Source: Bacteroidota bacterium
GTDB lineage: Bacteria > Bacteroidota > Ignavibacteria > UBA10030 > UBA8401
DNA length: 64,000 nucleotides
Direction: 5' to 3'
Assembly (NCBI GenBank): GCA_049317705.1
Contig: JBMOHT010000001.1
Location: 1,267 to 65,266 of the forward strand
Below are positions 35,153-57,934 of this stretch, one piece after another. A program made the position numbers and the translations under genes. The stretch's first letter is position 1. Each line of letters starts with the position of its first letter. A model generated the notes under the pieces. That model was not told the origin of the DNA, made no database searches, and saw nothing but the letters and a program-made list of their open reading frames with translations.

Positions 35153-35173
35153 AATTTTCTTCTGATGGAATGA

Positions 35174-36070
35174 TTAATACACTGCTTCCGTTACTTTGGT
35201 CTTCCGCATGAATACAACACTGAAGACCAGCAGGATGAAGAAAATGATCATTGATAATGCGGCGCCATACCCATACCGATAGAAATTGAATGCCGCTTTG
35301 TAGACGAATGAAACGAGAATGTGCGTGCTGTCGGACGGTTCACCCGCGTTACTGACAAGCCAGATGATATTCAGATTGTTGAATGTCCAAATGGTTCCAA
35401 GAGTGATCGCCGGGACCATGACCGGTTTGATCAATGGGATAGTGATCGTCCGCAATTTGTGATACCACGTAGCTCCGTCGATCTCAGCGGCCTCATACAG
35501 ATCCTGCGGAATACTTTGTAGCGCACCGAGTGCGATCACCATCATGAACGGAAAACCAAGCCATACATTCGTGATGATCGCTGCAATGAACGCTTCCGTC
35601 GGTCCACGAAGCCATTCGACTGCCGGGAGACCTACTTTGCCGAGGATCTGATTGATGCTGCCGTATTCATAATTGAACATTCCGCGCCATGTCAGTGCAA
35701 CGATCAATTGCGGCACGGCCCAGGGAAGGACGAGGATCGTGCGGAAGATCCCTTTTCCGCGTATCTCTTTTTGATTCAAGATCAGAGCGAGAAATACACC
35801 AAGGACAACATGGAAGAACAGATTGACGACCGTCCAAATGACCGTCTTGATGAAGATGACATAGAAATCGGGCTGGGACGGTTCGGTGAATACTTTCACA
35901 TAGTTGCGGAATCCGACGATCTCCCAGTCCTTGATATGACGAAGATTCATATTCGATAAGGAGATGATCACATTGTAAACGAATGGATAGACCACAACAC
36001 CCAGCAGGATGATCATTGCCGGTGTGACCAGGAAGAAGATGAAAAGCTTTTGACGGAGTGACTGACTCAT
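35174..36070 (-). CDS. Carbohydrate ABC transporter permease (MalF-like)
   Basis: 298 aa. EAA loop YEAAEIDGATWYHKLRTITIPLIKP. Confidence 0.85.
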   Translation of the reverse strand: MSQSLRQKLFIFFLVTPAMIILLGVVVYPFVYNVIISLSNMNLRHIKDWEIVGFRNYVKVFTEPSQPDFYVIFIKTVIWTVVNLFFHVVLGVFLALILNQKEIRGKGIFRTILVLPWAVPQLIVALTWRGMFNYEYGSINQILGKVGLPAVEWLRGPTEAFIAAIITNVWLGFPFMMVIALGALQSIPQDLYEAAEIDGATWYHKLRTITIPLIKPVMVPAITLGTIWTFNNLNIIWLVSNAGEPSDSTHILVSFVYKAAFNFYRYGYGAALSMIIFFILLVFSVVFMRKTKVTEAVY

Positions 36071-36113
36071 AATTTTTTACTACTTATCTTGATACATCAC
36101 TATGGTTCGGCGC

Positions 36114-36158
36114 GTCCCGATTGTACAGCATCGGGACTTCCGCCAAAAAGATGGCGGA
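36114..36158 (-). promoter_or_regulatory. Two tandem GC-rich hairpins in the intercistronic region between the binding-protein gene and the permease genes
   Basis: Plus-strand coordinates: GTCCCGAT (36114-36121) pairs with ATCGGGAC (36130-36137), and TCCGCCA (36139-36145) pairs with TGGCGGA (36152-36158). No long T-run follows. Confidence 0.6.
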
Positions 36159-36199
36159 CAAGTGCTCACCATGACTATCTATTTATTTCGTAACTTGAG

Positions 36200-37441: not shown

Positions 37442-37442
37442 A

Positions 37443-38726
37443 TCAATGGGATGCCGAAAACGTTTTCGCTGTAGCACCCTCTCCCCGTTTTTCTTTCACG
37501 AGGAACCAGCAGACAGATGATAATGCAAGTGAGACACCGCAGATGATGAAAATGATATTCTTATCCGCTGTATCCAGAATGAATTTCCCGATGAACAGAC
37601 TCACCAGCAACTGAGGCAGGACCACGGAAAGATTGAAGATGCCCATGAAGAATCCCATACGGCTCTTATCAACTTTTTCCGTCATAATAGCGAATGGAAG
37701 ACTGACGATGGATGCCCAGCCGATACCGCATACCGCCATCATCAGATAGAGCATCATCGCTTCACGCGCGAAGAGAACGATACCGAAATATCCCGCCGCC
37801 ATGACGGCAACGGCGATGAGGTGAACACGAACACGGCCGATCTTCTTTGCGATCGGTTCAAGGACGAACGCGGGAAGGATGAAACCGACGGTATTCAGCA
37901 CGGCAAATGAGATGGCGATGATCTGTCCCGCTTTCGCTGACGCCTCACCTGGATCGACACCGTTCATCATCTTCTGCTGAATGAAAGCGATGATGAACAC
38001 GAACATCGTCTGCACACCGATCCATGAGAAACCGTGCGCGATATAGATCCTCCACAACTGTCCCCACTCCGTTGCGGTCTTTTGCACTTGTTCAGCTGCT
38101 GATTCACCGGCCAGCTCTTTCGGTTCGGTGACAAAGAACATCGGAATAACGGAGAAAAGGAATACGATCACCACACCGATATTGATCAACACATAATTTC
38201 CCATCGTTGCACCGACAACATACGCAAACACGCCGAAGAAACCGGAAATGGTCTGCATCCACGTGTATCCTTTTGTGCGCGGCTCTCCTTCGGGAGTGAC
38301 ATCGGCAATGATGGAACGGGTGGGATTGAAACTGATATTGATGGAAAGATCGAGGGTCAACGCGATGATCACTGCAACGACCAGCAAATTCGTCATACCG
38401 AAGGCGGAACTGATAACATCGATATTCGGAAGTGCGAGCAGACTCAAAGCAGCAAGCGTCCCTCCGATCAGAACGAACGGTCTCCGCCTTCCTCCCCAGA
38501 ACCAAACTTTATCACTGATGAGTCCCACGATCACCTGACCGAAGATCCCTGCGAGAGGACCTGCCGCCCAGACGATGCCGACCTCATGGATATCAAGGTT
38601 ATATTTTGTGGTGAGAAGCCAGCTTAATGCCGAGATCTGGATGGATAAAGCGAATCCCATCGCGGTCGACGGCAGACTGATCAGTGCATAGAATGTGTTG
38701 GAGATCTTTTTCTGAATGTCCAGCAT
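37443..38726 (-). CDS. Second MFS sugar symporter (SLC45/GPH-like)
   Basis: 427 aa. Contains GQVIVGLISDKVWFWGGRRRPFVLIGG, the same signature loop as 32969..34270. Confidence 0.8.
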   Translation of the reverse strand: MLDIQKKISNTFYALISLPSTAMGFALSIQISALSWLLTTKYNLDIHEVGIVWAAGPLAGIFGQVIVGLISDKVWFWGGRRRPFVLIGGTLAALSLLALPNIDVISSAFGMTNLLVVAVIIALTLDLSINISFNPTRSIIADVTPEGEPRTKGYTWMQTISGFFGVFAYVVGATMGNYVLINIGVVIVFLFSVIPMFFVTEPKELAGESAAEQVQKTATEWGQLWRIYIAHGFSWIGVQTMFVFIIAFIQQKMMNGVDPGEASAKAGQIIAISFAVLNTVGFILPAFVLEPIAKKIGRVRVHLIAVAVMAAGYFGIVLFAREAMMLYLMMAVCGIGWASIVSLPFAIMTEKVDKSRMGFFMGIFNLSVVLPQLLVSLFIGKFILDTADKNIIFIICGVSLALSSVCWFLVKEKRGEGATAKTFSASH

Positions 38727-44188: not shown

Positions 44189-45592
44189 TTATTCCTCTTC
44201 CAGTGAAGTGATAAAGATCCTCGCAGTGCGCGGCGGTATATCGACCGTAACTGTGCCGCTGCGCGGTTTGAAGACCTTATTGGTGAATTCATCCCGCAGT
44301 TCCTTGATGCCGGGATTGACCGGCATGGTGATGCTCATGATCTTATCCCTGCGGTTGATCGCAACGTAGGCAAAATGCGAATTGAGCTGCCGTTCGAATG
44401 CGAATACTTTTGTTTGATCGTCCGCCGCCAGCGTCTTGAAATATCCGCGGCGCAGTGCGGGTGATTTTTTCCGGATCTGGATCAGTGACTGATACAATGT
44501 GAACAATTCCATATCCCATTTCTTCTCGTCCCACACCATCGTCTTCCGGCAGTCAGGGTCTTTCCCGCCTTCCATTCCGATCTCATCACCGTAATAGACC
44601 ATCGGAGCGCCCATGTATGTCATTTGAAATATCACGGACAGTTTCATCCGCCAGAATTCACCCTGGCAGAGCGTCAAATATCGTTCGGTATCGTGGCTTC
44701 CCAGCAGGTTCATCATCACCAATGAGTGGTAGCGGTGATGTGCATTCCGTAACGTCTCGAGTTGTTTGTCGAATTCACTCGTGTGGATCTTATCCTCGGC
44801 GAAATACTTCAGACACGCATCACGGAACCGGTAATTCATCACCGCGTCGAATTCATCCCCCTGCAGCCACGGTGTGGCGTCATCCCAGATCTCGCCGACG
44901 ATATAGCAGGCGGGATTGCGGGATTTCATGATAGTGCGGAATTCCTTCCAGAAATCATGCGGAATCTCGTTGGGGACATCCAGTCTCCAGCCATTCACAC
45001 GCTCAGACCAGTATTTCGTTACATCGAAGATATATTTTTTCACTTCCGGATTCTGAACCATCAGTTTCGGCAGCGAACCATATCCCCACCAGCATTCATA
45101 ATTCGGTTTATCCGGCGGAGCAACAGGATAGGAATAGATATTGAACCACGACGCATACGGAGAATCTTTTCCTTTTTCCTTCACATCCTTGAACGCAAAA
45201 TGGTCCGTTCCGACATGATTGAATACACCGTCGATCACGACCATGATATCGTGTACTTTGCATTGCATCATAAAACGGTCGAACAGCTGATTGGTCCCGA
45301 ATGCGGGATCGATCACGGAATAGTCCGACGTATTATATTTGTGATTGGAATTTGCCGCGAAGATGGGATTCAGATAGATGGCATTCACACCGAGCCGCTT
45401 CAGATGTCCGAGCCGGTTGATGATCCCTTGAAGGTCACCGCCGAAATAATTGTTCCCTTTCGGTTTGGCACCCCACTGTTCGGTATTCGGCGGATCGTTC
45501 GATGTATCGCCGTTCTCGAACCGTTCAGGAAATATCTGGTAGAACACGGCATCTTTCACCCAGTCAGGCACGATCACGGGAATATTCTGCAT
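44189..45592 (-). CDS. Cytoplasmic GH13 alpha-glucosidase/neopullulanase-cyclomaltodextrinase-type enzyme
   Basis: Contains VFYQIFPERF, GGDLQGI, IDGVFNHVG, GWRLDVPNE, VGEIWD and LLGSHDTER, and has no signal peptide. I moved the start to Met18 (45592) because codons 1-17 of the tracked ORF are the upstream terminator hairpin. Confidence 0.88.
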   Translation of the reverse strand: MQNIPVIVPDWVKDAVFYQIFPERFENGDTSNDPPNTEQWGAKPKGNNYFGGDLQGIINRLGHLKRLGVNAIYLNPIFAANSNHKYNTSDYSVIDPAFGTNQLFDRFMMQCKVHDIMVVIDGVFNHVGTDHFAFKDVKEKGKDSPYASWFNIYSYPVAPPDKPNYECWWGYGSLPKLMVQNPEVKKYIFDVTKYWSERVNGWRLDVPNEIPHDFWKEFRTIMKSRNPACYIVGEIWDDATPWLQGDEFDAVMNYRFRDACLKYFAEDKIHTSEFDKQLETLRNAHHRYHSLVMMNLLGSHDTERYLTLCQGEFWRMKLSVIFQMTYMGAPMVYYGDEIGMEGGKDPDCRKTMVWDEKKWDMELFTLYQSLIQIRKKSPALRRGYFKTLAADDQTKVFAFERQLNSHFAYVAINRRDKIMSITMPVNPGIKELRDEFTNKVFKPRSGTVTVDIPPRTARIFITSLEEE

Positions 45593-45621
45593 AGAGGTCA
45601 CTTCTTGTCTGGTGGATATAG

Positions 45622-45653
45622 AAAAGGCAGGGCAATTACTCACCCTGCCTTTT
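45622..45653 (-). terminator. Rho-independent terminator of the 1058-aa gene
   Basis: On the minus strand AAAAGGCAGGG-tgagtaattg-CCCTGCCTTTTC forms an 8-bp GC-rich stem followed by T4. Confidence 0.65.
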
Positions 45654-45715: not shown

Positions 45716-48700
45716 TTACTTCAGGAACATCATCTTCTTTACGGAAGTGAAGTTACCTGCTTCGATCTTGTAGAAGTACACGCCGCTGGACAATGAGTTT
45801 GCATTGAACGTTGCTTTGTAGTTGCCAACGGTCTGCATTTCATTGACGAGTGTTGCGACTTCCTGTCCAAGAACGTTGAACACCTTCAGGGAGACCATAC
45901 CATTCACAGGGATCGAATAGTTGATGACCGTTGAGGGGTTGAACGGGTTCGGATAGTTCTGTGTCAGTTCGAACTGTGTCGGTGCTGCACCGTCAACCTG
46001 TTTCACGCTCTTTGTTTCCAAAGCATAGTTCCACTGGTTGTAGTACAACGGATTGATGCTTCCGAACTGGCTTGCAATGGTTGCGGTAGCTGCAGCGTCA
46101 TTGATGTTTTCGATATGGTTGTTACCGAATCCGCCTTTGCCGCCTTCGTTATCGCCGCCCTTGATACCGAACTTGAATTCCTGACCAACAACGTTGTTCA
46201 GGGAGTCTTTGTAGAACTTGATCTGACGAGTGTAGATACGGTCTCCGGCAACAGCATCACCGTGTGTTCCGTTATCATACATGAAGCGCGTGGTATCGTC
46301 GATCAAGGACTGTCCCCAAGCATTCCATCCGCCTGCTGCCGGACCGTTGATTGCAACGCCCCATTTGTAGACAGAATCTTTGCTGGTAACATTGACTGTG
46401 TTCTGGATACCGAACAGCGTATCGCCCTTAGCAACCTGCCAGAATGCCGGTGCGAGGTTCACTGTGAACTTCACATCAACGTTCTGTGTCAGTTTGCGTG
46501 TATTGCGGAAGAACGGCCAGCGGTTCGCTTTGGTCTGATCTTTTGTGGTATCGACTGCTGAATTGGATTTTGCCGTCAACGGGAGCAAGCGGCGTTCTGC
46601 CAGCGTTACATCCGATCCGGTAAATCCGAAGTTGTAATATGATTCACGGAAATCCACACCATTCTTGACGATATAATACTGATACACCAGCGGTTTGCCG
46701 GTGCCGTCAGCTTTGATGTTGACGCCTCTGATCGATGAATCTGTTGCTGAATATACGTTGGAGAATGCCGATTTTACGAGATTCTTTGTTCCAACAAGTG
46801 AAGCGGACGATGCAAAACCATAACGAACCTGCACTGTATCTCCGATGGTATAGCCGTTGGTGGAGATAGCGCGGGACATATCAACCTGGAATTTCACGAT
46901 CGCTGTATCTGTTCCTGCCGGCGGTTTCACGCCAATATCATCCCACCATTTCCAGTAGAGTGTCGTATCGGCACTTCCGCGTTTGATGGTGAACGGACGA
47001 TCGGAAACACCTTCCCATTTCACAACATCGTTCGGTGTAGCATTGTTGATCTGGACGAATTTGAATGCATGTCCGATCGGAACGGTGATGGTGTCGGTAT
47101 TTGCTTTTTTCAACGGCAATTTGAATGTACCTGACCAGAAGTTCGGTCCGGTATAAGCAACGGATCCGCCGTTACCATGGTTTGCTTCACGTTTCAGTGT
47201 GAAGCCGGGGCCCCAACCGTTGAAGCTACCGCGGACGCCAACGCTCTGCGTTACCGGGTTGAAATCTTCCTGATTCTGCATGTTCACACGGAATGTCACT
47301 TCAAGTGAATCCGATTCAACATACGGGCGCCAGAAATGTGCCTGCTGTGCCGTTGAACCGTTCACGAATTGAAGTGCAATGGTCGTATCATTCTGTCCGA
47401 CAACCATTTTGCGGTTACCGTTGCCGTAGGAATTGATGTCATTTTCCCAGCCATTGTGTTCACCGGGATGACCGGCACCAACATTCGCCTGAGCATGTGT
47501 ATAGAGTTTGTACGGGAAATCAGCACCGGGAGCAAAGCGTGCTTTTGCCTGCCAGTAGTCACCGCCGATATTGGTGAACCGTACTGTCGAAGCGCCGTTC
47601 CAATCGAGCAGTCCGCCCGAAGCACCGCCGTCGCCGCGCATCTGAACGGTGGAGGTTGATTTCAATGTATCCGGAACCGATGAAGTATTCACAATGAATG
47701 TCACTTCAACGGAGCCCTGTTTCTTGAACATACCGGTGGAACCTGTGCCGCCGACGAGGATATGCGTAAGATCATAACCGCCTGCACCTCTGAATTCGGA
47801 CGTTGTTGACGGTGTCACCAATGCTGAGAATGATGTTCCGCCGTCTGTGGAGAGCCATGTACCTGCTTTTGCACCGCTGGTACCGACTGCCATCAGGTTC
47901 GTGGAGCCGCCGATCAGGTTCACTGTACGGACCTTTGTTGTTGCAAGGATAGCACCGGGAACGATCGCGATGGAATCGCTCCATGTTGCGCCGCCGTCAG
48001 TTGTTTTGTGGAACGGGTTGCCCTGTGTACCGGATTGACGACCGACACCCCAGCCGTTGTTTGCATCTTTGAAGGTGATCGAACGGAAATAGTAGTTCAC
48101 ATTTCCAACTGCATCTGCCACTTTGCTGACATGATGTGTCCATGTAACACCGCCGTCAGTCGATTTGATCAACGGAAGACCAACTCTGTTCGCAGCAGTC
48201 GCCTGGTAGTATGTTGCCCAGATCGTGTTGCCGATAGCATCGATGGATTTACCATATGCGGAAGAGGAGAATGTCTTTACGACGCCCTTCACTTCAGCAG
48301 GAATGGTAGTGATACGCGACCATGTTTTGCCTGCATCGGTGGTCTTCACCAAATGCATACCGAACCAGTCAGCATCACCAATAGCATATGCTGTTGTACC
48401 ATCAACAGCTTTTACGCCGTCGAAATACGCCGTGTCAACGTTGGAATATTTGTAAACAGTATCCCATTTTGCACCGCGATTCTCTGTTCTGAAGATGATA
48501 CCATCGTAGTTAGCAATAACTGCAGTGGAATCATTGAATGCGGCAATGTTCACATAACCGGCATTCGACGTCGGGGGCATTGCTGTTTTTGACCACGATG
48601 CACCGCCGTCTTTGGAATAGAACGTGTAATCCTGTGAACCGACCCAGCCGTTGGCCCAAACAACGCCGTTGGCTTTATAGTCGATCGCTAACACCGTGAG

Positions 48701-48892
48701 ACCGCTCAGACCTGCGACGTTTACCGGGGTCCAATCAGAACTCGGTGCCATGGCAGACGCCGGAGCGTTGGTGCTCATAACTTTTCTTGCTTCGCGTTCT
48801 TCTCTTAACTTTTCCTGACGTGCGGGATTAGCCGCGGCCAGAATGCCAAGAGCAACGCACGAAAGCAATACAACTTTTAGTGCATATTTCAT
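45716..48892 (-). CDS. Secreted BNR/Ycf48-like beta-propeller protein with repeated CBM-like beta-sandwich modules and a T9SS CTD
   Basis: 1058 aa. Six SxDxGxTW-type repeats (SKDGGASWS, TENRGAKWD, TTDAGKTWS, STDGGVTWT, TTDGGATWS, STDGGTSFS). Modules such as EVTFRVNM...VRGSFNGWG are present. The CTD is QNYPNPFNPSTVINYSIPVNGMVSLKVFN...KKMMFLK. Confidence 0.7.
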   Translation of the reverse strand: MKYALKVVLLSCVALGILAAANPARQEKLREEREARKVMSTNAPASAMAPSSDWTPVNVAGLSGLTVLAIDYKANGVVWANGWVGSQDYTFYSKDGGASWSKTAMPPTSNAGYVNIAAFNDSTAVIANYDGIIFRTENRGAKWDTVYKYSNVDTAYFDGVKAVDGTTAYAIGDADWFGMHLVKTTDAGKTWSRITTIPAEVKGVVKTFSSSAYGKSIDAIGNTIWATYYQATAANRVGLPLIKSTDGGVTWTHHVSKVADAVGNVNYYFRSITFKDANNGWGVGRQSGTQGNPFHKTTDGGATWSDSIAIVPGAILATTKVRTVNLIGGSTNLMAVGTSGAKAGTWLSTDGGTSFSALVTPSTTSEFRGAGGYDLTHILVGGTGSTGMFKKQGSVEVTFIVNTSSVPDTLKSTSTVQMRGDGGASGGLLDWNGASTVRFTNIGGDYWQAKARFAPGADFPYKLYTHAQANVGAGHPGEHNGWENDINSYGNGNRKMVVGQNDTTIALQFVNGSTAQQAHFWRPYVESDSLEVTFRVNMQNQEDFNPVTQSVGVRGSFNGWGPGFTLKREANHGNGGSVAYTGPNFWSGTFKLPLKKANTDTITVPIGHAFKFVQINNATPNDVVKWEGVSDRPFTIKRGSADTTLYWKWWDDIGVKPPAGTDTAIVKFQVDMSRAISTNGYTIGDTVQVRYGFASSASLVGTKNLVKSAFSNVYSATDSSIRGVNIKADGTGKPLVYQYYIVKNGVDFRESYYNFGFTGSDVTLAERRLLPLTAKSNSAVDTTKDQTKANRWPFFRNTRKLTQNVDVKFTVNLAPAFWQVAKGDTLFGIQNTVNVTSKDSVYKWGVAINGPAAGGWNAWGQSLIDDTTRFMYDNGTHGDAVAGDRIYTRQIKFYKDSLNNVVGQEFKFGIKGGDNEGGKGGFGNNHIENINDAAATATIASQFGSINPLYYNQWNYALETKSVKQVDGAAPTQFELTQNYPNPFNPSTVINYSIPVNGMVSLKVFNVLGQEVATLVNEMQTVGNYKATFNANSLSSGVYFYKIEAGNFTSVKKMMFLK

Positions 48893-48915
48893 AGAATACT
48901 CCTATGGTTGATTAA

Positions 48916-48960
48916 TACGGTGGATTATGGAACGCTTACAGCAGTTACGATGGACTATGG
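48916..48960 (-). repeat. 15-bp direct repeat (13/15 identical) spaced exactly 30 bp apart, upstream of the 1058-aa gene
   Basis: On the plus strand tacggtggattatgg (48916-48930) matches tacgatggactatgg (48946-48960). The repeats lie 24-68 nt upstream of the ATG at 48892. Confidence 0.6.
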
Positions 48961-49069
48961 TACTATACTTCTTCCGTTGCACCTCCTTTATCAAGAACGA
49001 TACATAGATGTTGGAATTAGTGTTCAGTGAATTGATTTTACCACATTTAATACCAAAAAACAACATTCC

Positions 49070-50077
49070 TTAGAAAGTGATTCCGATCGCCAACGTCTGA
49101 ATTCCGCCGAATTTGCCGAATTCCTGGTATGCAAAATCAAAGGAAACGACATTTGCCCCGGTGATCTCATATTTTGCACCCGCACCGGCAGTGAACGTCT
49201 CTTCTTTTTCGGGCAAAAAGAGAGATTTCATACCCCCGCGGAGGAATATCGCATCGCGCCATGATAATTCTCCGCCGACATTGAGCATTTCAGCGCTGTC
49301 GCTCGGACGAAGAGCATCAGCAGCGATGATCAGTCTCATATCATCTGTTTTGAATGCATCGATGGAAACACCGGCACGGAAAAAGAGCGGCAGAGGACGG
49401 TCTTCAGTCTTGTATTGTGCAACGATCGTTGCATTGTTGCCGGATTCATTTGGGCGGGAATCGAAGTTATTATAGAGATCCTTACCGTCCAAACGCATAT
49501 CGGCTCCGAAGTTGGAGATGCTCATTCCGATGGTCAGTCCGTTGAAATCGGTCTTATATTTCAGTCCGACATCAAGGGCCATTGAACTGGCTGATTCATT
49601 CCAGATCTTCATCTGAATCAATTTTGCCGTCGCACCGATAGCGAATTTATCCGTCAGATTGCGTGCATAGGAAATACCGACTGCCAGATCGGAAGCGGTC
49701 CATGTCTCTTCCCCGCCGTTCTGACTGAATTCGGTCGTGAGCATCTCTTCACCGTAATTCAGCTGCGTCACATTCACACCGATCGCGCCGCCGTCTCCAA
49801 GATCAACTGTCACACCGACCCAGTCGAATTTAGTGTCGACCAGCCACGCAGTGTGCGAGACCAGCACTTGAGAATATCCCAGCTGAGAGATCGCACCGGG
49901 ATTATAATAGAGTGCCGATGCATCGTTCGCAACGGCGACATATGCTCCGCCGAGTCCGATACCTCGGGGACCGACTGCAATGCCGAGGAACGGCGCCGCA
50001 GAAGTTCCGACCTTGGACTGCGAGAATGCAGGAAGAGCGATGAACAACATGAGAACGATTGATAATACTTTTTTCAT
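49070..50077 (-). CDS. PorV/PorQ-family outer-membrane beta-barrel protein (locus-embedded paralogue)
   Basis: Signal peptide MKKVLSIVLMLFIALPAFSQ. Contains GTSAAPFLGIAVGPRGIGLGGAYVAVANDASALYYNPGAISQL, the PorV/PorQ N-terminal signature. Ends in F (LAIGITF). Confidence 0.75.
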   Translation of the reverse strand: MKKVLSIVLMLFIALPAFSQSKVGTSAAPFLGIAVGPRGIGLGGAYVAVANDASALYYNPGAISQLGYSQVLVSHTAWLVDTKFDWVGVTVDLGDGGAIGVNVTQLNYGEEMLTTEFSQNGGEETWTASDLAVGISYARNLTDKFAIGATAKLIQMKIWNESASSMALDVGLKYKTDFNGLTIGMSISNFGADMRLDGKDLYNNFDSRPNESGNNATIVAQYKTEDRPLPLFFRAGVSIDAFKTDDMRLIIAADALRPSDSAEMLNVGGELSWRDAIFLRGGMKSLFLPEKEETFTAGAGAKYEITGANVVSFDFAYQEFGKFGGIQTLAIGITF

Positions 50078-50114
50078 GATAAGCTCCGAAGATTCTTTTT
50101 TCACGTGAATCACC

Positions 50115-53100
50115 TTATTTGATCACCGCGATCTTACCGGATTTTGTTCCGGAAGATGACTCAATGACATAGAAGTAAACGCCGAACGCAACATCGAGAT
50201 TCTCTTTCGTCTTCACATCCCATTTGATGGTGCCATTCTGAATTGAACCATCCTGATGCAGTGTACGGATATGCTCACCGCGTGCGGTATAGATGGAGAC
50301 CTTCGCATCCTGAGGCACATTCTGGAACTCGATCTTCCGTTCTCCTCTGCCGAATGTTCCGGCGGCCGGCGGTGTTTCGCCGTATGCCTGAACAACGTAA
50401 GGATTCGGAACGACTCTGACTGATGAGAGTGACGGTGAGACATTCCCCACAACCACTTTCGGTTTCTCGGTCGTGAAATAGAACTTATCCTCTTTACGGA
50501 ATGATTTGCGTGTCCGTAATTTCAGCGTGTCTCCTGTTCCGAATGTGTAGACGGTATCAGGACCGAATGATGGTTTTAAGAAATAGACCGTCCATGTATA
50601 GATCAATGAATCTTTTTTATTTTTTTCAAAGAATAGCAATTGATCATCGGATGACATTTTGCCGGGATTGATATTGTCCAACCAAAGGAATGATACCTTC
50701 TTATTTTCCGTGATATTCTTCACGGTAAAGTTCGTCGGTGTCGGCGGAAGCCCATAAAGATCAGCAGTTGTATCGATTATCGAATTAGAAAAGACAATAT
50801 TGTAATCGGCTGCATTTTCTGAAGCATAAGTGTCATAGACGCCGTTGCCGTCAATATCAAGATCCACCGTGGAGAAGGTAAATGCATATGCTTTGTTCAG
50901 ATTGGAGAATTTGGAGAGCGAATCGATCAGCGAGATCTTCCAATCGTTGGTAAAAGCCAGCTGAACACCGTCGAAGATGTCCGTGTCATACGTTTCACGG
51001 ACGTATGGACTGTTATTGATATAGGGACTCTTCGCCACGGGATAATACTGATACCGGATCGAATACTTCCGCAGATTATTGGTATCCGGCTGCAGATCGT
51101 ACCGAGCTTTTGCACGGATAGATCCGCGTTCAAGATTCAGGATATATTTTGACGTATCGACCGGTGTCCCGTCCTGTTTCGTTATAGTGATGCTTCCCTT
51201 CACCAGATTCGTCTTCGGCAGAAGAGCCGTTATCGTATCTATCTTTGAAGGAGCAAACGTGCCGTTATAATAAGTCGTATCGCGAACATAATAATAGGTC
51301 GTTACGGGTGAGAATTTTCCGCTGTCCCTCGTATCGAGGAACGATACTTCATATGTACTCCCGCTGATCTTTGATTCGTCGACCACTTTATAGTAGACAT
51401 TACCTGTTGCAACGACCGAAGCTGCTTTGGGAACTTTTACTGACGACGGCGGAGGCGTGTAACCGGAGACCTTCTTTCCCGGCACTACGATGGCGACGTT
51501 CTGTGAAGCCCCGCGGATACGGCCTGCCTGATCGATATCGATCTTCCAGCCGTTCTCTGACGGGAAGATACCGGTCACTTCATCGCCGTTATCATACGCA
51601 ACGATCACATAGTAATATGTCTTTCCGTTCACCACGTCATAATCCGCTGTATCATGGACCAGACCGGTGTTGGAACCGAGCTTATATGTGAATCCTGCCG
51701 CATCGTCGAAGATCGCAGCCGGTGCGCGGTAATATCCGCTGATGCTGTCCTTCAAGTCCACCTGGAATTTTGCATCATACCCTTTTCTGTTTCCGTCGGC
51801 ATCCGTTACAGAGAATGCATCGTTGAATTCATAATCCGTTGCTTTATAGATCTTGTATCCCTGAAAATCTTTGATCTTCAGAACGGGATCGATCGCATTC
51901 TCTGCTCTCCGGTCCCAATACAATTTTACTTTTCCGTCGCCGGCGACCGCAGTCAATGTCGGCACGGGTTCCGGTGCGATCGGGAACTGATAGTTTGCAT
52001 CATAGATCTTCTGCACGGTCTGTTTGTGTTTCAGCAGATCGGTGATATCATCCTCACGTGAACCGCCGTTGCCGCCGCCGTAGACGAGTGCAAGCGAGAA
52101 CCGTTCCGTCTTTTTGGAAAGCAGCGGGAAGTATCCGGATGAGTACGTGAAGTCGCCGTCCTGACCGTATTCGGGTTTGTTGGCAACGATCGATTTCGGC
52201 ACGGAGAACACGCCGGGTTTCATATCGCCCCAGAGGATCTCATCATCGCCGAGATAGATACCGTTGGCCGGAGTGAAATACTTGAAACTCGTCAGACCGA
52301 TCTGATCGGATTCATCAACATCCGTCTTATCGATATTCGGTTCACCGGGAAGACCGGTATCCGTTCCGTTCACCGAGTACCCTGATGAAGGAAGACCGTC
52401 CGCTTCACCGGCATCCTTCGTCCCTGATACACCGTCCATACCGACGTCATCGAATCCGATATTCCAATCCTTGTCGTTGTCCACCAGGTCATCCCTGCGT
52501 TCATCGATCATCGCGAACGGACCGCCGTTGAATGCGGGATTATAGGTAAGGTAACGGACAGGACGAAGGATATCGATCAAGGTCTTCGGCGGGATATCGT
52601 CGGATGTCTTCACCTGTCTGAAATGCAGGTAGTAGTTCTCATCGATGATTCCGTCAAGGTCATTATCAATACCGTCGAATGCATTCGGGTTGACGGTCGG
52701 TACGCCGGAAACGATGATCACATTTCCTTCCGCCAGTTTCGTTGTTCCCGCCGTAACAGATACTGTTCCGCCGCGCGTGTTGAAAACGGTCGTGCCCGCA
52801 GCGACTGTAACGATCTGTCTGCTGAAGTCATTGTTGATCAGTACGACTTTGGCGCCGGCATTGATCTTTGTGGAATCAAAATCTGTTGCGACGAATAACG
52901 ATGTCGGAGATCCGACAACTTTCTTGTCGACATCACCGTCGTTGTCGATCGCATCGTACGGATTTCCCGGACTTTCGAGGAATGCATATCCGACCATTCC
53001 GACACTTCCCTGCCAGAACGGATTGCGGGCGCAATTCCTGTCGAAATCGCCGGTGTAGGTGATATTCTCGTTCACATCGTAGAAGGACCAGTCATCATCA

Positions 53101-53900
53101 TATTCATTGAAATTCTGTGTTCCGGTCACACCGACCAATGTTCCCACAAGCATACCGAATGTTGCGCGGTCATAGTTGGATGTGCTCGTATTGGTGATCT
53201 CATACAGCCAGAAAATATTGTCCTGAGCAAGGAACTGGCTCCACTGCATACCGCGGACCTTCACGTTCAATCCAAGTCCGTTCCGCGATGTATTGTTGGA
53301 ATCCGGTTTGAATGCAATGCCCAGACTGTTATTGTTCGCAAAGCTGTAACGGATGTCATTATTATCATCCATCACTACGTAACTCTCCTGATTCGCGCTG
53401 GAACGTTTTCCGAAATATCCGTTCCACGATCCCTGCCATCCCGGATCCTGTCCGTCGTTCAATTTATCGGGCCATGATGTCGGCCAGGTGGTTGGGTCAT
53501 CACTCATCGCGATGCTCTGTTTTGCGGGATTGAAGTATCCGTTCACCGGCATGAATGTCCACGGTTTGCCGCCGCCGGATTTGTCATCCGTATCGAACGA
53601 TGATGCGGGACGCGAGACAGGACTCGTCACGACCGAATGGAATGTCTGTCCTGCGGTCTTCACTTCCGCACCGACGATGAGCGAAACGTCGCCGACATAT
53701 CCGTTCGTGGAATAGATCCATGCGCCGCGAGGCCGTGTATCACCCGGCTGACCGATCACACCCCAGTTACCAAAGACCGATTTCACTCGGTTGGCGTTGT
53801 GAACGGCTGAGCGGTAATACTGCGAACCGGATTGGGAGAACGCTCTCTCGGATCCGATCACGAGAACTAACGCAAGAATTGATGAGAGTATTTTTTTCAT
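50115..53900 (-). CDS. 1261-aa secreted protein of unknown function with Ca-binding-type Asp repeats and a T9SS-like CTD
   Basis: Signal peptide MKKILSSILALVLVIGSERAFSQ. DxDxDG-type loops are present (IDNDGDVDK, DGIDNDLDGIIDEN, DDLVDNDKDWN, DDVGMDG). The C-terminus is VVPNPYVV...GVYFYVIESSSGTKSGKIAVIK. It lies 14 nt downstream of the TonB receptor gene. Confidence 0.6.
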   Translation of the reverse strand: MKKILSSILALVLVIGSERAFSQSGSQYYRSAVHNANRVKSVFGNWGVIGQPGDTRPRGAWIYSTNGYVGDVSLIVGAEVKTAGQTFHSVVTSPVSRPASSFDTDDKSGGGKPWTFMPVNGYFNPAKQSIAMSDDPTTWPTSWPDKLNDGQDPGWQGSWNGYFGKRSSANQESYVVMDDNNDIRYSFANNNSLGIAFKPDSNNTSRNGLGLNVKVRGMQWSQFLAQDNIFWLYEITNTSTSNYDRATFGMLVGTLVGVTGTQNFNEYDDDWSFYDVNENITYTGDFDRNCARNPFWQGSVGMVGYAFLESPGNPYDAIDNDGDVDKKVVGSPTSLFVATDFDSTKINAGAKVVLINNDFSRQIVTVAAGTTVFNTRGGTVSVTAGTTKLAEGNVIIVSGVPTVNPNAFDGIDNDLDGIIDENYYLHFRQVKTSDDIPPKTLIDILRPVRYLTYNPAFNGGPFAMIDERRDDLVDNDKDWNIGFDDVGMDGVSGTKDAGEADGLPSSGYSVNGTDTGLPGEPNIDKTDVDESDQIGLTSFKYFTPANGIYLGDDEILWGDMKPGVFSVPKSIVANKPEYGQDGDFTYSSGYFPLLSKKTERFSLALVYGGGNGGSREDDITDLLKHKQTVQKIYDANYQFPIAPEPVPTLTAVAGDGKVKLYWDRRAENAIDPVLKIKDFQGYKIYKATDYEFNDAFSVTDADGNRKGYDAKFQVDLKDSISGYYRAPAAIFDDAAGFTYKLGSNTGLVHDTADYDVVNGKTYYYVIVAYDNGDEVTGIFPSENGWKIDIDQAGRIRGASQNVAIVVPGKKVSGYTPPPSSVKVPKAASVVATGNVYYKVVDESKISGSTYEVSFLDTRDSGKFSPVTTYYYVRDTTYYNGTFAPSKIDTITALLPKTNLVKGSITITKQDGTPVDTSKYILNLERGSIRAKARYDLQPDTNNLRKYSIRYQYYPVAKSPYINNSPYVRETYDTDIFDGVQLAFTNDWKISLIDSLSKFSNLNKAYAFTFSTVDLDIDGNGVYDTYASENAADYNIVFSNSIIDTTADLYGLPPTPTNFTVKNITENKKVSFLWLDNINPGKMSSDDQLLFFEKNKKDSLIYTWTVYFLKPSFGPDTVYTFGTGDTLKLRTRKSFRKEDKFYFTTEKPKVVVGNVSPSLSSVRVVPNPYVVQAYGETPPAAGTFGRGERKIEFQNVPQDAKVSIYTARGEHIRTLHQDGSIQNGTIKWDVKTKENLDVAFGVYFYVIESSSGTKSGKIAVIK

Positions 53901-53914
53901 AGAGAGTGCCCTGA

Positions 53915-56857
53915 TTAAAATTCGATCGTCGCGCCGACTTCGATCCTGCGCGGTTCGGAATAATTCTGCGGATTCGTGTAATAATCTGAAATGGTGTTGA
54001 TATACGGTTTCTGTCCGGAGAGCAATGCTTCGCGCTCGTATTTCGTTTCACCAGCTCTGCCGGTATCGCCGTAGACGCCGGTCTCATTCTTTGTATCGAA
54101 GATATTATTCACTCTCATGAAGAGTGTCACTTTCAACGCATCGAGCGAGATATTCTTGTATACGCGGACGTCGGTATTGAAATAGGAAGGTTTGATCTCA
54201 GAGTTGGTCAGGAACACGGTCACATCACTCGTCACATCAGGTGTATACGGTGTGCCGCTGCCGTATTGACTGATGATGCTTCCTCCCCACGTCTCCTCTG
54301 AATATGAGAAGATACCATTGATGGTGTGCCGCTGGTCCCATCCGAGCGGTGTCAGCTGCACTTCGGGAAGCTGTCCGCCTGCCACCTGATTACGGGCCTG
54401 GTTCGGATCCGATGCGCTTCCGCGTGCGATCTGGAACGTATAATCCACTGCAAGGGACATGCCCTGTGCGAACCGTTTGTCCAGCGAAAGGATGAAACCG
54501 CGGACAAAGCCGAAATCGCTGTTCACATATTTTGTATAGGTGCGTGATGCGAATCCGCCGCCGATCGGGATCTGATCCGCGCGTGAACCGGTGAGGTTAC
54601 GGATATCGCGGAGATACGCTGTGACATCGATGCTCATGTCGTCGGTCAGCTGCTGCTGAAGCCCGATCTCACCGTTGATCGTCTGTTCCGGTTTCAGATC
54701 GGCATTCCCGGTCGGTGCTCCGCTATGGTCAACATTACCGGTCCCTTCGCCGACCTTGAATCCTGGATTCGCATACAAACGTTCAAAATTCGGGGTCTGG
54801 AAGAAATGACCGTATGAGAAATGGATCACACCGCGGTCGGTGATCGGGAAGGATGCGCCGAAGCGGGGACTGATCTTGAATTTCGATGAAGCTTTTTTAT
54901 ACCAATACGTTCTGCGGTCTGCGACTGTTTTTGCTTTTTCGATTCCGTCCTGAATTCCGTTCCCGTTCGTATCAAAGAATGTGTTGATGACCTTTGCGGG
55001 AGAATAGATATTCGGATCCTCATCATCGGCAAGGACATTGGCATCGGGTTCAAAATAGTCCACCCGAACACCGATGTTGATGATAAGGTCCTTGAATTCC
55101 ATCTTATCCTGAAGATAACCGGAAAGTTCGATCGGTTTGTGTGTATACGTATCGTGATAATTTGAAGAATCGCTCTCGATGTACGTGGAGATATACGGAC
55201 TTGACTGGCCGTTCTTATAGGAAAGCTGACCCGGAACAGGGCGCAGCGTCAGGTCATCCATAAATACTTTATGCTGACGCACTTCAACGCCGGCCTTCAC
55301 GAAATGCTCGTTGCTCACCTGACTGCTCAGATCGAACTTCAGCAGACCAGTGGTCGTTGCACGCTGATACCGTCCAAGATCTGAACCGCCCGTGCTGTAT
55401 GAATACGTGCTTTGAGCGCGGCCGAGATTCGCAAGATCGGGATGGGTGTATCGGGTGTCGTAAGGATTTTCGTAGAGGTAATGTTTGAAGGTCTTTTCGA
55501 AATATGATCCGCCGAGAGTATAGAACGTTGTCGTGCTCAGTGTGTGGGTCAATTGGAAGATACCGGTATAACTCTTTGTATAATTCTTTCCCTGACCGTC
55601 CGGATTATACTGGAAGTCACGGTTGTAATCCTGCGATTCAACATTGTCATAGATACCGGTGATATTCAATTTCAGTTCGGGAGTGATCTTCATGGCAAGT
55701 TTTGCCTGCAGATATACTTTATCATTCCATCCCATCGGAACTGTCTTTCCGTCCCCTTTTCCGTTCGTGTAGAGATTCGTGAATGCTCTATAAGCGGAAT
55801 CGGCCTTTGCTTTGTTGATGGAATCCGCCTGCGCAAATGTCAGCGAACCGCCGGGGGTCACAAATTTAACATTGGCGAGTGAATAGATCCTATCGTTCAA
55901 AGTGTCCGTACCGAGGATGTACACTTCGTCTTTATCGAACCGTTTGGCTATAGCTGTGCTCGGAGTATACCGGCGGATCCCGTTCAAATAGCCGCCGTAA
56001 TGGATATTCCGACCGTTAAGATAGAGTGAGACATCCTTTCCGACGAGCGGACCGCTGATACTTCCTTCAATATTGCGGATGTTGAGCGGTTCAAATTTTT
56101 CGATCCCTTTGAAGATATTTCCGTGATTACTGAGGAAGTCACCAGCATATGCGGTAACGCTCCCTGAATACTTTTCCGCACCTTCACGAGTGACGATATT
56201 CACGATACCGGACATTGCCTGGCCGTATTCCGCATTGAATGCGCCGGAAAGGACCTGAAGTTCCTGCACCATACTCGGATTGACATCAACAACAGCGCTG
56301 CCGTTGAACACGTCCGTCACCGGCACACCGTCGATCCAATATGCAGTCTCACCGGAACGTCCGCCCCGGATACTCCCTGCGACGTTACCGGCCTGCAGAT
56401 TGATCACCTGGCTGATCTCTGTTACAGGAAGCTGCTTGATATCATCGCCGCCGACGACTGCGGTCGTCGAGGTAAGGTCCTTCTGCACCAGCGGACGTTC
56501 AGCAGTGATCACGACCTCATCACCGACGACGGTCTCTTCGCTGATCTTAAAATCCTGACGGGTGGTAAGGTCCGATGCAACACGAATGTTGGAGTAACTG
56601 ACTGGTGAATAACCGATGGACGATGCGCGGATGGTATACGTACCCGGCTGAAGATTCAGGATGAGATAATTTCCCTCAAAATCCGTCACCGCACCGTATG
56701 AAGTTCCGACAAGGATGATATTCACACCCGGAAGGTCTTCACCGGTCTTTGCATCGGTGATCTTTCCGACGATCTTACCGGTTGTGCCGGCAAATGAAAC
56801 GGAAGTAAGTGAAAGGAATGTGATGAATATTGCGAGAACGGTAACAATTTTTTTCAT
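53915..56857 (-). CDS. TonB-dependent receptor with an N-terminal carboxypeptidase-regulatory-like domain (SusC-type architecture)
   Basis: 980 aa with a signal peptide. The CarboxypepD_reg domain is GKIVGKITDAKTGEDLPGVNIILVGTSYGAVTDFEGNY. A plug domain follows, then a long barrel ending in RRIEVGATIEF. Confidence 0.9.
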   Translation of the reverse strand: MKKIVTVLAIFITFLSLTSVSFAGTTGKIVGKITDAKTGEDLPGVNIILVGTSYGAVTDFEGNYLILNLQPGTYTIRASSIGYSPVSYSNIRVASDLTTRQDFKISEETVVGDEVVITAERPLVQKDLTSTTAVVGGDDIKQLPVTEISQVINLQAGNVAGSIRGGRSGETAYWIDGVPVTDVFNGSAVVDVNPSMVQELQVLSGAFNAEYGQAMSGIVNIVTREGAEKYSGSVTAYAGDFLSNHGNIFKGIEKFEPLNIRNIEGSISGPLVGKDVSLYLNGRNIHYGGYLNGIRRYTPSTAIAKRFDKDEVYILGTDTLNDRIYSLANVKFVTPGGSLTFAQADSINKAKADSAYRAFTNLYTNGKGDGKTVPMGWNDKVYLQAKLAMKITPELKLNITGIYDNVESQDYNRDFQYNPDGQGKNYTKSYTGIFQLTHTLSTTTFYTLGGSYFEKTFKHYLYENPYDTRYTHPDLANLGRAQSTYSYSTGGSDLGRYQRATTTGLLKFDLSSQVSNEHFVKAGVEVRQHKVFMDDLTLRPVPGQLSYKNGQSSPYISTYIESDSSNYHDTYTHKPIELSGYLQDKMEFKDLIINIGVRVDYFEPDANVLADDEDPNIYSPAKVINTFFDTNGNGIQDGIEKAKTVADRRTYWYKKASSKFKISPRFGASFPITDRGVIHFSYGHFFQTPNFERLYANPGFKVGEGTGNVDHSGAPTGNADLKPEQTINGEIGLQQQLTDDMSIDVTAYLRDIRNLTGSRADQIPIGGGFASRTYTKYVNSDFGFVRGFILSLDKRFAQGMSLAVDYTFQIARGSASDPNQARNQVAGGQLPEVQLTPLGWDQRHTINGIFSYSEETWGGSIISQYGSGTPYTPDVTSDVTVFLTNSEIKPSYFNTDVRVYKNISLDALKVTLFMRVNNIFDTKNETGVYGDTGRAGETKYEREALLSGQKPYINTISDYYTNPQNYSEPRRIEVGATIEF

Positions 56858-56899
56858 TCCAGCGACTCCGAAATGATAGTATGAACAGCGTTGTTTCGT

Positions 56900-57934
56900 T
56901 TATTGTTGATGGAACACATATTTTTTGTTAGCACCGCAGCTTGCACGGACCACGAGCGACGGTTTGAAGTCCACCGATGTGACCGGTGCATTCGGATTCT
57001 CGATCCGTTCCAGCATCTTCTTGACGGCCAGTTCACCCATCTTGAACATCGGCTGGCTCATGGTCGTCAGATCGAAATTCTTTGCGAGTTCCACATCATC
57101 AAAACTGACGATCGCGACATCACCGGGGACGCTGAAACCGCTTTCACGCAGAGCAGCAAGAACGCCGATGGCCTGGATATCGCTGGATACGAAGAATGCG
57201 TTCGGCATCTTCGTCCCGCGTGCAATGAACTCTTTCATGCTGTGGTATCCGGATTCCCTGCTGAATCCGTCATTCTTTGCGTCCGGACTGATCATAATGA
57301 GGTCATCACTGACCTTGATACCGCGGTCGGACAAGGTAGATCGAAAACTGGAAAGACGTTCGCGTGCCGGAGAACTTTTCAGATTTGCATTGATCATTCC
57401 GATGGAGGTGTGTCCTAGTGACAACAGATGCTCCGTAGCGATCCTCGCCCCCATGGCATTATCAACACGGATTGAATCGAATAACGGATGGAATGTATCG
57501 ACCAACACGAGCGGGATCTTTCGGTCAAGGATCTCCTGAGCATACTGTTCAGGCAGTTCCAATGAAAAAAGCAATGTTCCGTCCACTCTCCCTTTTCGCA
57601 TTGACCGCTGAAGGTATTCTTCCACCTGATCCTGATTGTTGGCGCCGTGAATGATCAGATCATATCCCAATGTTGTCAGTGTTTCCTGGACCCCTTGAAG
57701 GACCTCAATGAAGAAATAATTCGTGAAGAAAGGAATGATGGCGCTGAGTGTATTGGATCGTTTGCGGGCCAATGCCTGAGCAAATGCATGCGGCTGATAG
57801 TTCAGCCGGCGGGCAATAGTAATAACGCGTTCGCGGGTCTCTGAAGTAACATTTGCGCTGTTATTCAAGACCCGAGAAACTGTACCAATCCCTACATTCG
57901 CTTCTCTGGCAATGTCGTATATCGTAACGGACAA
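56900..57934 (-). CDS. LacI-family transcriptional regulator
   Basis: 344 aa. The HTH is VTIYDIAREANVGIGTVSRVLNNS, followed by a periplasmic-binding-fold sugar sensor domain. Confidence 0.95.
   Translation of the reverse strand: MSVTIYDIAREANVGIGTVSRVLNNSANVTSETRERVITIARRLNYQPHAFAQALARKRSNTLSAIIPFFTNYFFIEVLQGVQETLTTLGYDLIIHGANNQDQVEEYLQRSMRKGRVDGTLLFSLELPEQYAQEILDRKIPLVLVDTFHPLFDSIRVDNAMGARIATEHLLSLGHTSIGMINANLKSSPARERLSSFRSTLSDRGIKVSDDLIMISPDAKNDGFSRESGYHSMKEFIARGTKMPNAFFVSSDIQAIGVLAALRESGFSVPGDVAIVSFDDVELAKNFDLTTMSQPMFKMGELAVKKMLERIENPNAPVTSVDFKPSLVVRASCGANKKYVFHQQ

Follow-up and report, generated by a model that had tools for sequence, protein, structure and literature searches.

How does a bacterium of the phylum Bacteroidota import starch oligosaccharides across its outer membrane when its starch locus encodes a TonB-dependent receptor but no recognizable SusD? 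This question is raised by a cluster of minus-strand genes within a 64-kb window (64,000 nucleotides of contig JBMOHT010000001.1, assembly GCA_049317705.1). An earlier note, based on sequence alone, proposed that surface proteins delivered by the T9SS and held by a dedicated PorV paralogue may replace the SusD/E/F lipoproteins as the glycan-capture partner of the receptor. We re-examined the locus with profile searches, structure prediction and a gene-neighborhood census.

Architecture of the starch locus

The open reading frames, their spacing and their domains are as the note described, and the features are as follows, with the domains of the 1261-aa protein listed separately.

56900..57934 (-), LacI-family repressor (344 aa), the likely maltodextrin-responsive regulator of the cluster
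53915..56857 (-), TonB-dependent transporter (980 aa) with a CarbopepD_reg_2 N-terminal extension, plug and barrel, not a SusC/RagA family member
50115..53900 (-), 1261-aa secreted protein of an unannotated family, with a type-I signal peptide
51966..53831 (-), its N-terminal domain (aa 24-645), a predicted new all-beta domain
50316..51965 (-), its predicted Fn3/Ig-like beta-sandwich domains (aa 646-1195)
50118..50315 (-), its divergent T9SS C-terminal sorting domain (CTD; 'giant-type', core aa 1196-1261)
49070..50080 (-), PorV/PorQ-family outer-membrane barrel, the proposed cognate anchor of the 1261-aa protein
45716..48892 (-), BNR/Asp-box propeller protein (1058 aa) with a weak CBM20-like stretch and a canonical type-A CTD
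44189..45643 (-), GH13 alpha-amylase family enzyme without a signal peptide (cytoplasmic)
41454..44186 (-), extracellular GH13 (pullulanase/amylase-like) with a type-A CTD
38729..41314 (-), GH57 with CBM48 and CBM20, with a signal peptide and no CTD
32969..38726 (-), inner-membrane import genes: MFS, lipoprotein SBP (with a lipobox), two ABC permeases and a second MFS

The first five genes are separated by gaps of 42, 14, 1 and 177 nt; the third gap applies if the barrel (347 aa) starts at the GTG at 50113, and becomes 34 nt if it starts at the ATG at 50080, which gives a normal signal peptide. The repressor matches LacI (PF00356) and Peripla_BP_3 (PF13377); the receptor matches CarbopepD_reg_2 (aa 29-117), Plug (aa 125-217) and TonB_dep_Rec_b-barrel; and the 1058-aa protein matches BNR/PSII_BNR and Por_Secre_tail (41 bits). 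Among downstream genes, the cytoplasmic GH13 matches PF00128 at 242 bits, and the extracellular GH13 matches PF00128, PF18962 and TIGR04183. The barrel belongs to the PorV/PorQ family (NF033709, 188 bits against a cutoff of 90), but scores below the equivalog cutoffs for PorV (67/250) and PorQ (100/220), and its only PDB hit is Flavobacterium johnsoniae PorV (6h3i_F, E 1.3e-7).

Two of the note's statements require qualification. Firstly, the sorting domain attributed to the 1261-aa protein is not detected by Pfam or NCBIfam at E <= 0.01; it is a divergent relative of type A, hit by a custom type-A HMM over aa 1196-1261 at E = 4e-6, while a few homologues carry weak PF18962 or PF13585 hits. 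Secondly, the 'SusC-type' architecture is true only of the domain order, as the SusC/RagA model TIGR04056 matches aa 28-229 only, at 76.5 bits against a cutoff of 368, and the only SusC match in the PDB covers aa 19-242.

No SusD family (PF07980, PF12771, PF14322) hit any locus protein, or any other open reading frame of 400 aa or more in the window, and none appears in the precomputed Pfam lists of the related loci retrieved. The locus might nonetheless be an ordinary SusC/SusD system, with a SusD partner that was missed or is encoded elsewhere, and the large protein and the PorV-like gene as incidental neighbors. Only 64 kb of this genome was seen, true susCD tandems are reported in Ignavibacteriae (PMC5753385), and a Sus-like operon is reported in Melioribacter roseus (PMC3534657). 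However, given the poor fit of the receptor to the SusC/RagA model, its resemblance to SusC only in the N-terminal extension and plug, the absence of SusD families from the window and the Pfam-labeled related loci, and the conservation of neighbors across phyla described below, we consider this explanation very unlikely.

Predicted structure of the 1261-aa protein

The 1261-aa protein has no Pfam or NCBIfam family, and has more than 1320 homologues. The AlphaFold model of aa 24-1165 (pLDDT 81, pTM 0.72) is almost all-beta, and Foldseek finds no TPR or SusD match. The N-domain, which matches 699 clusters at 50% identity, was modeled with greater confidence (pLDDT 87.7, pTM 0.88) as a beta-supersandwich core with Asp-rich loops that look like calcium-binding sites. 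Its best Foldseek matches are weak (E 3e-3, TM 0.26), and fall on N-terminal sandwich domains of dextran dextrinase and GH94 phosphorylases. The Fn3/Ig-like region (aa 646-1195) gives tandem Fn3 matches, and the stretch at about aa 850-1150 is the most variable part of the protein and a candidate specificity region.

Given such weak matches, glycan binding is not demonstrated, and an enzymatic role cannot be excluded. The protein may represent a new carbohydrate-active enzyme family, for example an endo-acting or transglycosylating enzyme, which produces the oligosaccharides that the receptor imports. Conservation is very high for a binding protein (about 45% identity across phyla over 1260 aa), many Asp, Glu and Trp residues in the N-domain are invariant and could be catalytic, and the weak fold matches are all to domains of glycoside hydrolases, phosphorylases and lyases. 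Against this, the matched parts of those enzymes are probably non-catalytic N-terminal sandwich domains, no catalytic barrel or (alpha/alpha)6 domain is predicted, and the Asp-rich motifs (DxDxDG-like) resemble calcium sites. Further, the same N-domain is kept beside alpha-glucan, arabinan/rhamnose-type, alpha-mannan-type and xylan-type enzyme sets, which is hard to reconcile with one catalytic specificity. We regard a catalytic function as unlikely.

Conserved linkage of receptor, secreted protein and barrel

Linkage was examined in 81 independent loci from genomes labeled Ignavibacteria, KSB1, Marinimicrobia, Calditrichia, Fidelibacterota and Cloacimonetes. The CarboxypepD_reg receptor lies directly upstream of the 1261-aa homologue in 63 of 63 testable loci, and the PorV/Q-like barrel directly downstream in 72 of 72, with median gaps of about 20 and 31 nt, respectively. 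A LacI gene lies directly upstream of the receptor in 33 of 50 related loci, and the BNR protein follows the barrel in 58 of 61 starch loci. A paralogue subfamily, in which the N-domain is 36-42% identical, forms the same triad in 7 of 7 cases, beside GH43 with rhamnose genes, GH97 with GH99/71, GH39 with GH5, a GH115-like gene, and CE2, under AraC, hybrid two-component, GntR or LacI regulators. The BNR protein is absent from these paralogue triads, and belongs to the starch version only. In a third variant, an unrelated 713-aa protein with a similar C-terminus sits between a related receptor and a PorV-like gene.

The class of sorting domain tracks with the dedicated barrel. The CTD of the 1261-aa protein scores 146 bits on an HMM of giant-type CTDs against 27 bits on the type-A HMM, and held-out triad proteins score a median of 154 against 22. 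In contrast, relatives of ~950 aa with a canonical type-A CTD score 28 against 109, and lack the adjacent triad arrangement (0 of 3 loci). The neighboring BNR protein also carries an ordinary type-A CTD (126 bits on the type-A HMM); only the 1261-aa protein carries the special class. The CTD of the latter is, however, only moderately more conserved than that of its neighbor (63% against 51% mean pairwise identity). Receptors co-diverge with the module: those of other triads are 33-37% identical to the window receptor, over the full length in most (one over aa 368-980 only), whereas non-triad CarboxypepD_reg receptors match only the N-terminal ~230 aa or fewer.

A proposed model for glycan capture

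Together these findings support the interpretation in the earlier note, and suggest that the locus is a complete alpha-glucan (starch) utilization system, the outer-membrane core of which is a conserved three-gene module and not a SusC/SusD pair. We propose, with somewhat better than even confidence, that the sorting domain of the 1261-aa protein is not cleaved, but stays bound to the PorV/PorQ-like barrel encoded directly downstream, as PorZ stays on PorQ and type-B cargo on PorP/SprF (PMC10202324). This would tether the protein on the cell surface beside the TonB-dependent transporter encoded directly upstream, where its conserved N-domain and variable Ig-like domains may capture oligosaccharides released by the T9SS-secreted GH13, with help from the BNR/CBM20-like surface protein. 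The transporter would then import these oligosaccharides using TonB, GH57 and GH13 enzymes would finish breakdown, MFS and ABC systems would carry the products into the cytoplasm, and the LacI repressor would control the cluster. Retention of the CTD, binding of cargo to barrel, contact with the receptor, glycan binding and co-regulation are inferred, in the absence of experimental or structural evidence for any protein-protein contact. Moreover, conservation of the N-domain between subfamilies with different predicted substrates fits a structural or docking role better than substrate recognition, and leaves the recognition site unassigned.

A less likely, though possible, alternative is that the 1261-aa protein and the barrel form only a cargo-anchor pair, displaying a glycan-binding or scaffold protein that does not physically partner the transporter, with the three genes simply co-regulated parts of a polysaccharide locus. 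The transporter would in this case work alone, like carbohydrate transporters of Xanthomonas or Caulobacter that have no lid. Consistent with this, TonB-dependent carbohydrate transporters without SusD work in Proteobacteria (PMC1790865), and the distinct CTD class tracks the barrel, not the receptor as such. However, the receptor is invariably the immediately preceding gene in the testable loci and in the paralogues, with short gaps; triad receptors form their own full-length-related group that diversifies together with the other two genes; and tandem duplications copy all three genes as a unit.

Relation to known systems

We found no prior description of this arrangement, although its elements have precedents. 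Like the Bacteroides starch utilization system (SusC/SusD with SusE, SusF and SusG) and SusCD-defined polysaccharide utilization loci, the cluster combines a regulator, an outer-membrane TonB-dependent transporter with a CarboxypepD_reg-like extension, surface accessory proteins, an extracellular GH13, later-acting glucosidases and inner-membrane importers, and its core transporter module is reused beside many different CAZyme sets and regulators, including hybrid two-component systems. It differs in having no SusD-fold protein, a receptor that fails the SusC/RagA model, accessory proteins that carry T9SS sorting domains instead of being surface lipoproteins, and an obligatory PorV-like barrel gene in the core.

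As in the cognate pairs PorQ-PorZ, PorV-PorU, and PorP/SprF with type-B CTD proteins such as SprB (PMC10202324), a dedicated PorV-family barrel is encoded next to one particular protein with a CTD class of its own, and the expected outcome is an uncleaved CTD that anchors the protein at the surface. Here, however, the barrel is neither PorV, PorQ nor PorV2 by the NCBIfam equivalog models (the PorP/SprF model was not specifically tested), the CTD is a divergent relative of type A and not type B, and the pair is fixed to a TonB-dependent transporter gene in nutrient-uptake loci, not in secretion-apparatus or gliding-adhesin contexts. Non-SusD surface lids in Bacteroides, such as BtuG of BtuB-BtuG (PMC10404256; bioRxiv 10.1101/2023.03.17.533168), similarly pair a transporter outside the SusC family with an adjacent surface protein thought to capture the ligand, but are lipoproteins of modest size, whereas the partner here is a 1261-aa T9SS substrate with a separate barrel anchor. 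Loci in Xanthomonas and aquatic Proteobacteria (PMC1790865) also cluster SusD-less TonB-dependent glycan import with CAZymes, a LacI-type regulator and an inner-membrane transporter, but have no T9SS, obligatory large surface partner or PorV-like barrel.

The note had stated its inference for 'this lineage', yet the module is not a property of one lineage that lacks SusD, given the true susCD tandems reported in Ignavibacteriae. Rather, the triad is a general PUL-like core, which recurs across several FCB phyla next to many different sugar-degrading enzymes, and probably does the job that SusC/SusD do in Bacteroides.

Gene content of the starch locus

The five open reading frames that head the locus all lie on the minus strand, and confirm the arrangement described in the earlier note:

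56900-57934 (-), LacI repressor of 344 aa (LacI and Peripla_BP_3)
53915-56857 (-), TonB-dependent receptor of 980 aa (CarbopepD_reg_2, Plug and barrel)
50115-53900 (-), large secreted protein of 1261 aa, with no Pfam or NCBIfam family
49070-50113 (-), PorV/PorQ-family barrel of 347 aa
45716-48892 (-), BNR protein of 1058 aa (BNR/PSII_BNR and Por_Secre_tail)

The intergenic gaps are 42, 14, 1 and 177 nt. The longest reading frame of the PorV-like gene starts at a GTG one base after the stop codon of the large protein; however, the ATG 33 nt downstream (50080), which extends the third gap to 34 nt, gives a typical signal peptide (MKKVLSIVLMLFIALPAFSQ) and is the more likely start. Downstream, in the same direction, lie a cytoplasmic GH13, a GH13 with a type-A C-terminal sorting domain (CTD), a GH57 with CBM48 and CBM20, and an inner-membrane import set at 32969-38726 (-) comprising an MFS transporter, a lipoprotein SBP, two ABC permeases and a second MFS transporter. 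No ATPase gene was seen within the cluster, and the presence of two MFS transporters as well as an ABC system looks like redundant inner-membrane import. The last transporter gene is followed by a GWxTD-domain protein of 459 aa (31519-32898, -), a homologue of which is also present near the module in one related locus (L033). Just upstream of the LacI gene lies a 663-aa protein with TPR repeats and an Omp28-like domain (58019-60010, -), homologues of which (40-56% identity) occupy a similar upstream position in four related loci (L017, L018, L029 and L081). Elsewhere in the window is a cbb3-type oxidase cluster (15610-22863, -), consisting of a fused CcoN-CcoO gene (704 aa, COX1 plus FixO), a FixG-like ferredoxin and a P-type ATPase with a cation-ATPase metal-binding domain. 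Promoter and terminator scanning of 41000-58500 returned no more sites than in shuffled sequence, and we therefore claim no operon boundaries; tRNA and Rfam scans of the window were empty.

Although the earlier note described the receptor as having SusC-type architecture, this holds only for its domain order, with a CarboxypepD_reg-like N-terminal extension (PF13715, aa 29-117) followed by plug (PF07715, aa 125-217) and barrel (PF00593, aa 408-919). The SusC/RagA family model (TIGR04056) gives 76.5 bits against a curated cutoff of 368, and covers aa 28-229 only, while the PDB SusC homologue 8aa4_A matches aa 19-242 only; hence the receptor is not a SusC/RagA member. Nor is there an adjacent susD-like gene, as in the susCD tandem that defines a polysaccharide utilisation locus (PUL) in PULDB. 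No match to the SusD families PF07980, PF12771 or PF14322 was found in any locus protein, in any other open reading frame of 400 aa or more in the window, or in those related loci for which Pfam labels were recorded. On these grounds an ordinary SusC/SusD system with its SusD partner encoded elsewhere in the genome is very unlikely, albeit not excluded.

The barrel meets the PorV/PorQ family model (NF033709) with 188 bits over aa 37-345, against a cutoff of 90, and its only PDB hit is Flavobacterium johnsoniae PorV (6h3i_F, E 1.3e-7). It nonetheless scores below the equivalog cutoffs for PorV (NF033710, 67 against 250 bits), PorQ (NF033711, 100 against 220) and PorV2 (NF052325, 66.5 against 325), and constitutes a separate paralogue group within the family.

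The 1261-aa secreted protein

The large protein has a type-I signal peptide (MKKILSSILALVLVIGSERAFSQ) with no Cys, and thus no lipobox of the kind expected in a SusD-like surface lipoprotein. More than 1320 full-length homologues exist, all of them 'hypothetical' and about 1230-1320 aa long, and the N-domain (aa 24-645) alone finds 699 clusters at 50% identity (220 at E <= 1e-30) among 1.84 billion representatives. Sequence searching of the family against the PDB returned nothing meaningful, the best hits being ribosomal protein S17 and one Fn3 domain at E > 0.1. AlphaFold2 modelling of aa 24-1165 (pLDDT 81, pTM 0.72) predicts an almost entirely beta structure, and the N-domain alone is modelled with pLDDT 87.7 and pTM 0.88. 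Foldseek comparison of the whole model with the PDB yielded only generic tandem Fn3/Ig matches, for the C-terminal half, whereas the N-domain alone gave only weak matches (best E 3e-3, TM 0.26), which fall on beta-supersandwich N-domains of a dextran dextrinase, GH94/GH149 phosphorylases, PL26, GH116 and the YidC periplasmic domain. We therefore claim no enzyme family and no relationship to SusD, SusE or SusF; neither a catalytic domain nor a helical SusD-like fold is predicted. The Asp-rich motifs (DNDGD, DGIDNDLDG and DKTDVDESD) are invariant, and may represent calcium sites.

Conservation of the three-gene module

To establish whether the receptor, large protein and barrel are linked irrespective of the carbohydrate-active enzymes (CAZymes) present, as the earlier note had asked, we scanned one genome per GTDB species and found at least 558 relatives. 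The 80 best loci carry labels of Ignavibacteria/Ignavibacteriota, 'Bacteroidota', KSB1, Neomarinimicrobiota, Calditrichia, Fidelibacterota and Cloacimonetes, and share 44-91% identity over the whole protein. Several metagenome-assembled genomes that carry close orthologues of the whole module (L007, L010, L017, L018, L025 and others) are titled 'uncultured Chitinophagaceae', 'Cytophagia' or even 'Chromatiales' and 'Acidobacteriota', but their high identity to Ignavibacteria-type loci suggests that these automatic taxon labels are unreliable. BLASTP of all locus reading frames against the window proteins revealed strict adjacency of the three genes, with median gaps of about 20 nt (receptor to large protein) and 31 nt (large protein to barrel). 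GH13 or GH57 genes are nearby wherever enough flank is present.

Table. Neighbours of the large protein in starch orthologue loci (found / testable loci)
Receptor directly upstream: 63 / 63
PorV-like barrel directly downstream: 72 / 72
BNR-CTD protein next: 58 / 61
LacI upstream: 33 / 50

A paralogue subfamily, about 1120-1150 aa long and 36-42% identical in the N-domain, shows the same triad in all seven cases, in the following settings:

L084, GH43 with rhamnose-type catabolism genes and an AraC regulator
L085, GH97, CBM4_9 and GH99/71-CTD with a hybrid two-component regulator
L086, one triad, followed by a LacI-led variant
L087, two triads in tandem under a GntR regulator, with a GH115-like gene
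L088, malectin-CTD, GH39-CTD and GH5 with an AraC regulator
L089, CE2 and a beta-helix CTD protein with a LacI regulator

In L087 (6997-21845) the two complete triads lie behind one regulator, and the module is duplicated as a unit. In the variant in L086 (16490-23420), a LacI gene and a related receptor are followed by a 713-aa protein and a PorV-like gene. The 713-aa protein has no detectable similarity to the large-protein family, although its C-terminus resembles that of the large triad proteins. The middle protein of the triad may be exchangeable. Receptors of paralogue triads are 33-37% identical to the window receptor, over the full length in most (one over aa 368-980 only), whereas three non-triad CarboxypepD_reg receptors match only the first ~230 aa or fewer. 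The three genes therefore diversify and duplicate as a unit, whatever the CAZyme content. The invariable adjacency and the co-diverging receptor clade weaken the alternative that the large protein and barrel are a cargo-anchor pair that is merely co-regulated with the receptor, which we consider unlikely, though it is the strongest of the alternatives. It is also possible that the large protein is a new surface enzyme. Its unusually high conservation favours this view, yet the lack of a predicted catalytic domain, and the reuse of the N-domain beside unrelated CAZyme sets, render it improbable.

The sorting domain and the barrel

Canonical type-A sorting domains (PF18962 / TIGR04183) were matched in the 1058-aa BNR protein (41 and 46 bits) and in the 910-aa GH13 (34 and 40 bits). 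The earlier note also ascribed a T9SS sorting domain to the 1261-aa protein, in which no Pfam or NCBIfam hit was obtained at E <= 0.01; here the domain is visible only with a purpose-built model. An HMM built from 76 neighbouring type-A CTDs hits the extreme C-terminus of 112 of 121 starch-type proteins (for the window protein, aa 1196-1261 at E = 4e-6) and of 101 of 102 paralogues, and some homologues have weak PF18962 or PF13585 hits. In a reciprocal test the two CTD classes separate cleanly, with the domain of the window protein scoring 146 bits on the HMM of its own subclass (the giant CTD) against 27 on the type-A HMM.

Table. Scores of C-terminal sorting domains (bits on giant-CTD HMM; bits on type-A HMM)
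Held-out triad proteins (median): 154; 22
Window BNR protein: 36; 126
Window GH13-CTD: 27; 117
713-aa variant in L086: 38; 6
~950-aa relatives (median): 28; 109

The ~950-aa relatives are a subfamily that shares the first ~300 aa of the N-domain but carries a curated PF18962 CTD, and serves as a natural control. Around the three copies inspected (L090 8001-10865, L091 8001-10871 and L092 8001-10841), one of which sits in a GH31 and GH13-CTD alpha-glucan cluster, there is no PorV-like gene and no adjacent receptor (0 of 3), although L091 has a receptor about 2 kb downstream, separated by another gene. The special CTD class therefore goes with the dedicated barrel. This matches the established idea of cognate PorV-like barrels that keep an uncleaved CTD, exemplified by PorZ on PorQ, PorU on PorV, and type-B cargo with an adjacent PorP/SprF gene (PMC10202324). 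Conservation of the CTD itself offers little further support for retention, as the giant CTD is only modestly more conserved than the type-A CTD (63% against 51%).

Proposed mechanism

Together these findings suggest that the large protein is exported by Sec and then by the T9SS, and that its giant-type CTD may remain uncleaved and be retained on the cognate PorV-like barrel. It may then capture maltooligosaccharides produced by the secreted GH13, with help from the BNR/CBM20-like surface protein. Retention and capture are inferred, and the proposal, while supported by comparative genomics and fold prediction, has yet to be tested at the level of physical assembly. TonB would drive import, after which GH57 and GH13 would process the products, and MFS and ABC systems would take them up, under LacI control. 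The most variable region of the large protein, at about aa 850-1150 (20-29% identity between subfamilies, with an indel), is the best candidate for substrate specificity, whereas parts of the N-domain, the first Fn3 domain and the CTD are conserved between subfamilies, and are candidates for docking.

Relationship to known systems

The module appears to work like a Sus-type PUL core, yet it satisfies neither the SusC model nor the susCD tandem by which such loci are defined. Its barrel-cargo pair likewise appears to work like PorQ-PorZ or SprF-SprB, but is a separate paralogue group with a separate CTD class. True susCD tandems are reported in Ignavibacteriae (PMC5753385; PMC3534657), while a rice-paddy study noted that susCD is scarce in Ignavibacteriales CAZyme clusters (PMC10576277). 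The triad is therefore an alternative design, and not a consequence of the whole lineage lacking SusD. Incidentally, the Melioribacter roseus genome paper labels three genes between GH13 and GH31 genes (Mros0759-0761) as SusC, SusD and SusE (PMC3534657). The surrounding gene set resembles the starch module seen here, the labels may have been assigned by position, and these genes could be this triad. Full-text literature searches found no description of the triad. What appears to be new is the combination of TonB-dependent glycan import with T9SS cognate anchoring, each of which is known in its own right.

A bolder interpretation, which is tentative but compatible with the evidence, is that a previously unrecognised three-component outer-membrane glycan-import machine is the general PUL core of the non-Bacteroidia FCB phyla (Ignavibacteria-type, KSB1, Marinimicrobia, Calditrichota, Fidelibacterota and Cloacimonadota). 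Its parts would be a distinct clade of TonB-dependent transporter, a ~1100-1300-aa T9SS-delivered cap protein of a new fold family, and a dedicated PorV-like barrel that holds the cap by a new class of uncleaved sorting domain. Such a machine would use type IX secretion instead of surface-lipoprotein export to build the equivalent of SusCD, and would reveal a third kind of cognate CTD-barrel recognition.

More broadly, PUL prediction (PULDB, dbCAN-PUL) relies on the susCD tandem, and glycan-uptake loci in Ignavibacteria-type, KSB1, Marinimicrobia, Calditrichota and related phyla therefore go largely unrecognised, although these groups are abundant in sediments, soils, bioreactors and the dark ocean. 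A conserved receptor, cap protein and barrel triad would give a simple genomic marker for finding and counting such loci. It would also link type IX secretion mechanistically to TonB-dependent nutrient uptake, add a new class of sorting domain with its own PorV-family receptor, and offer a test of whether lid-assisted import evolved more than once.
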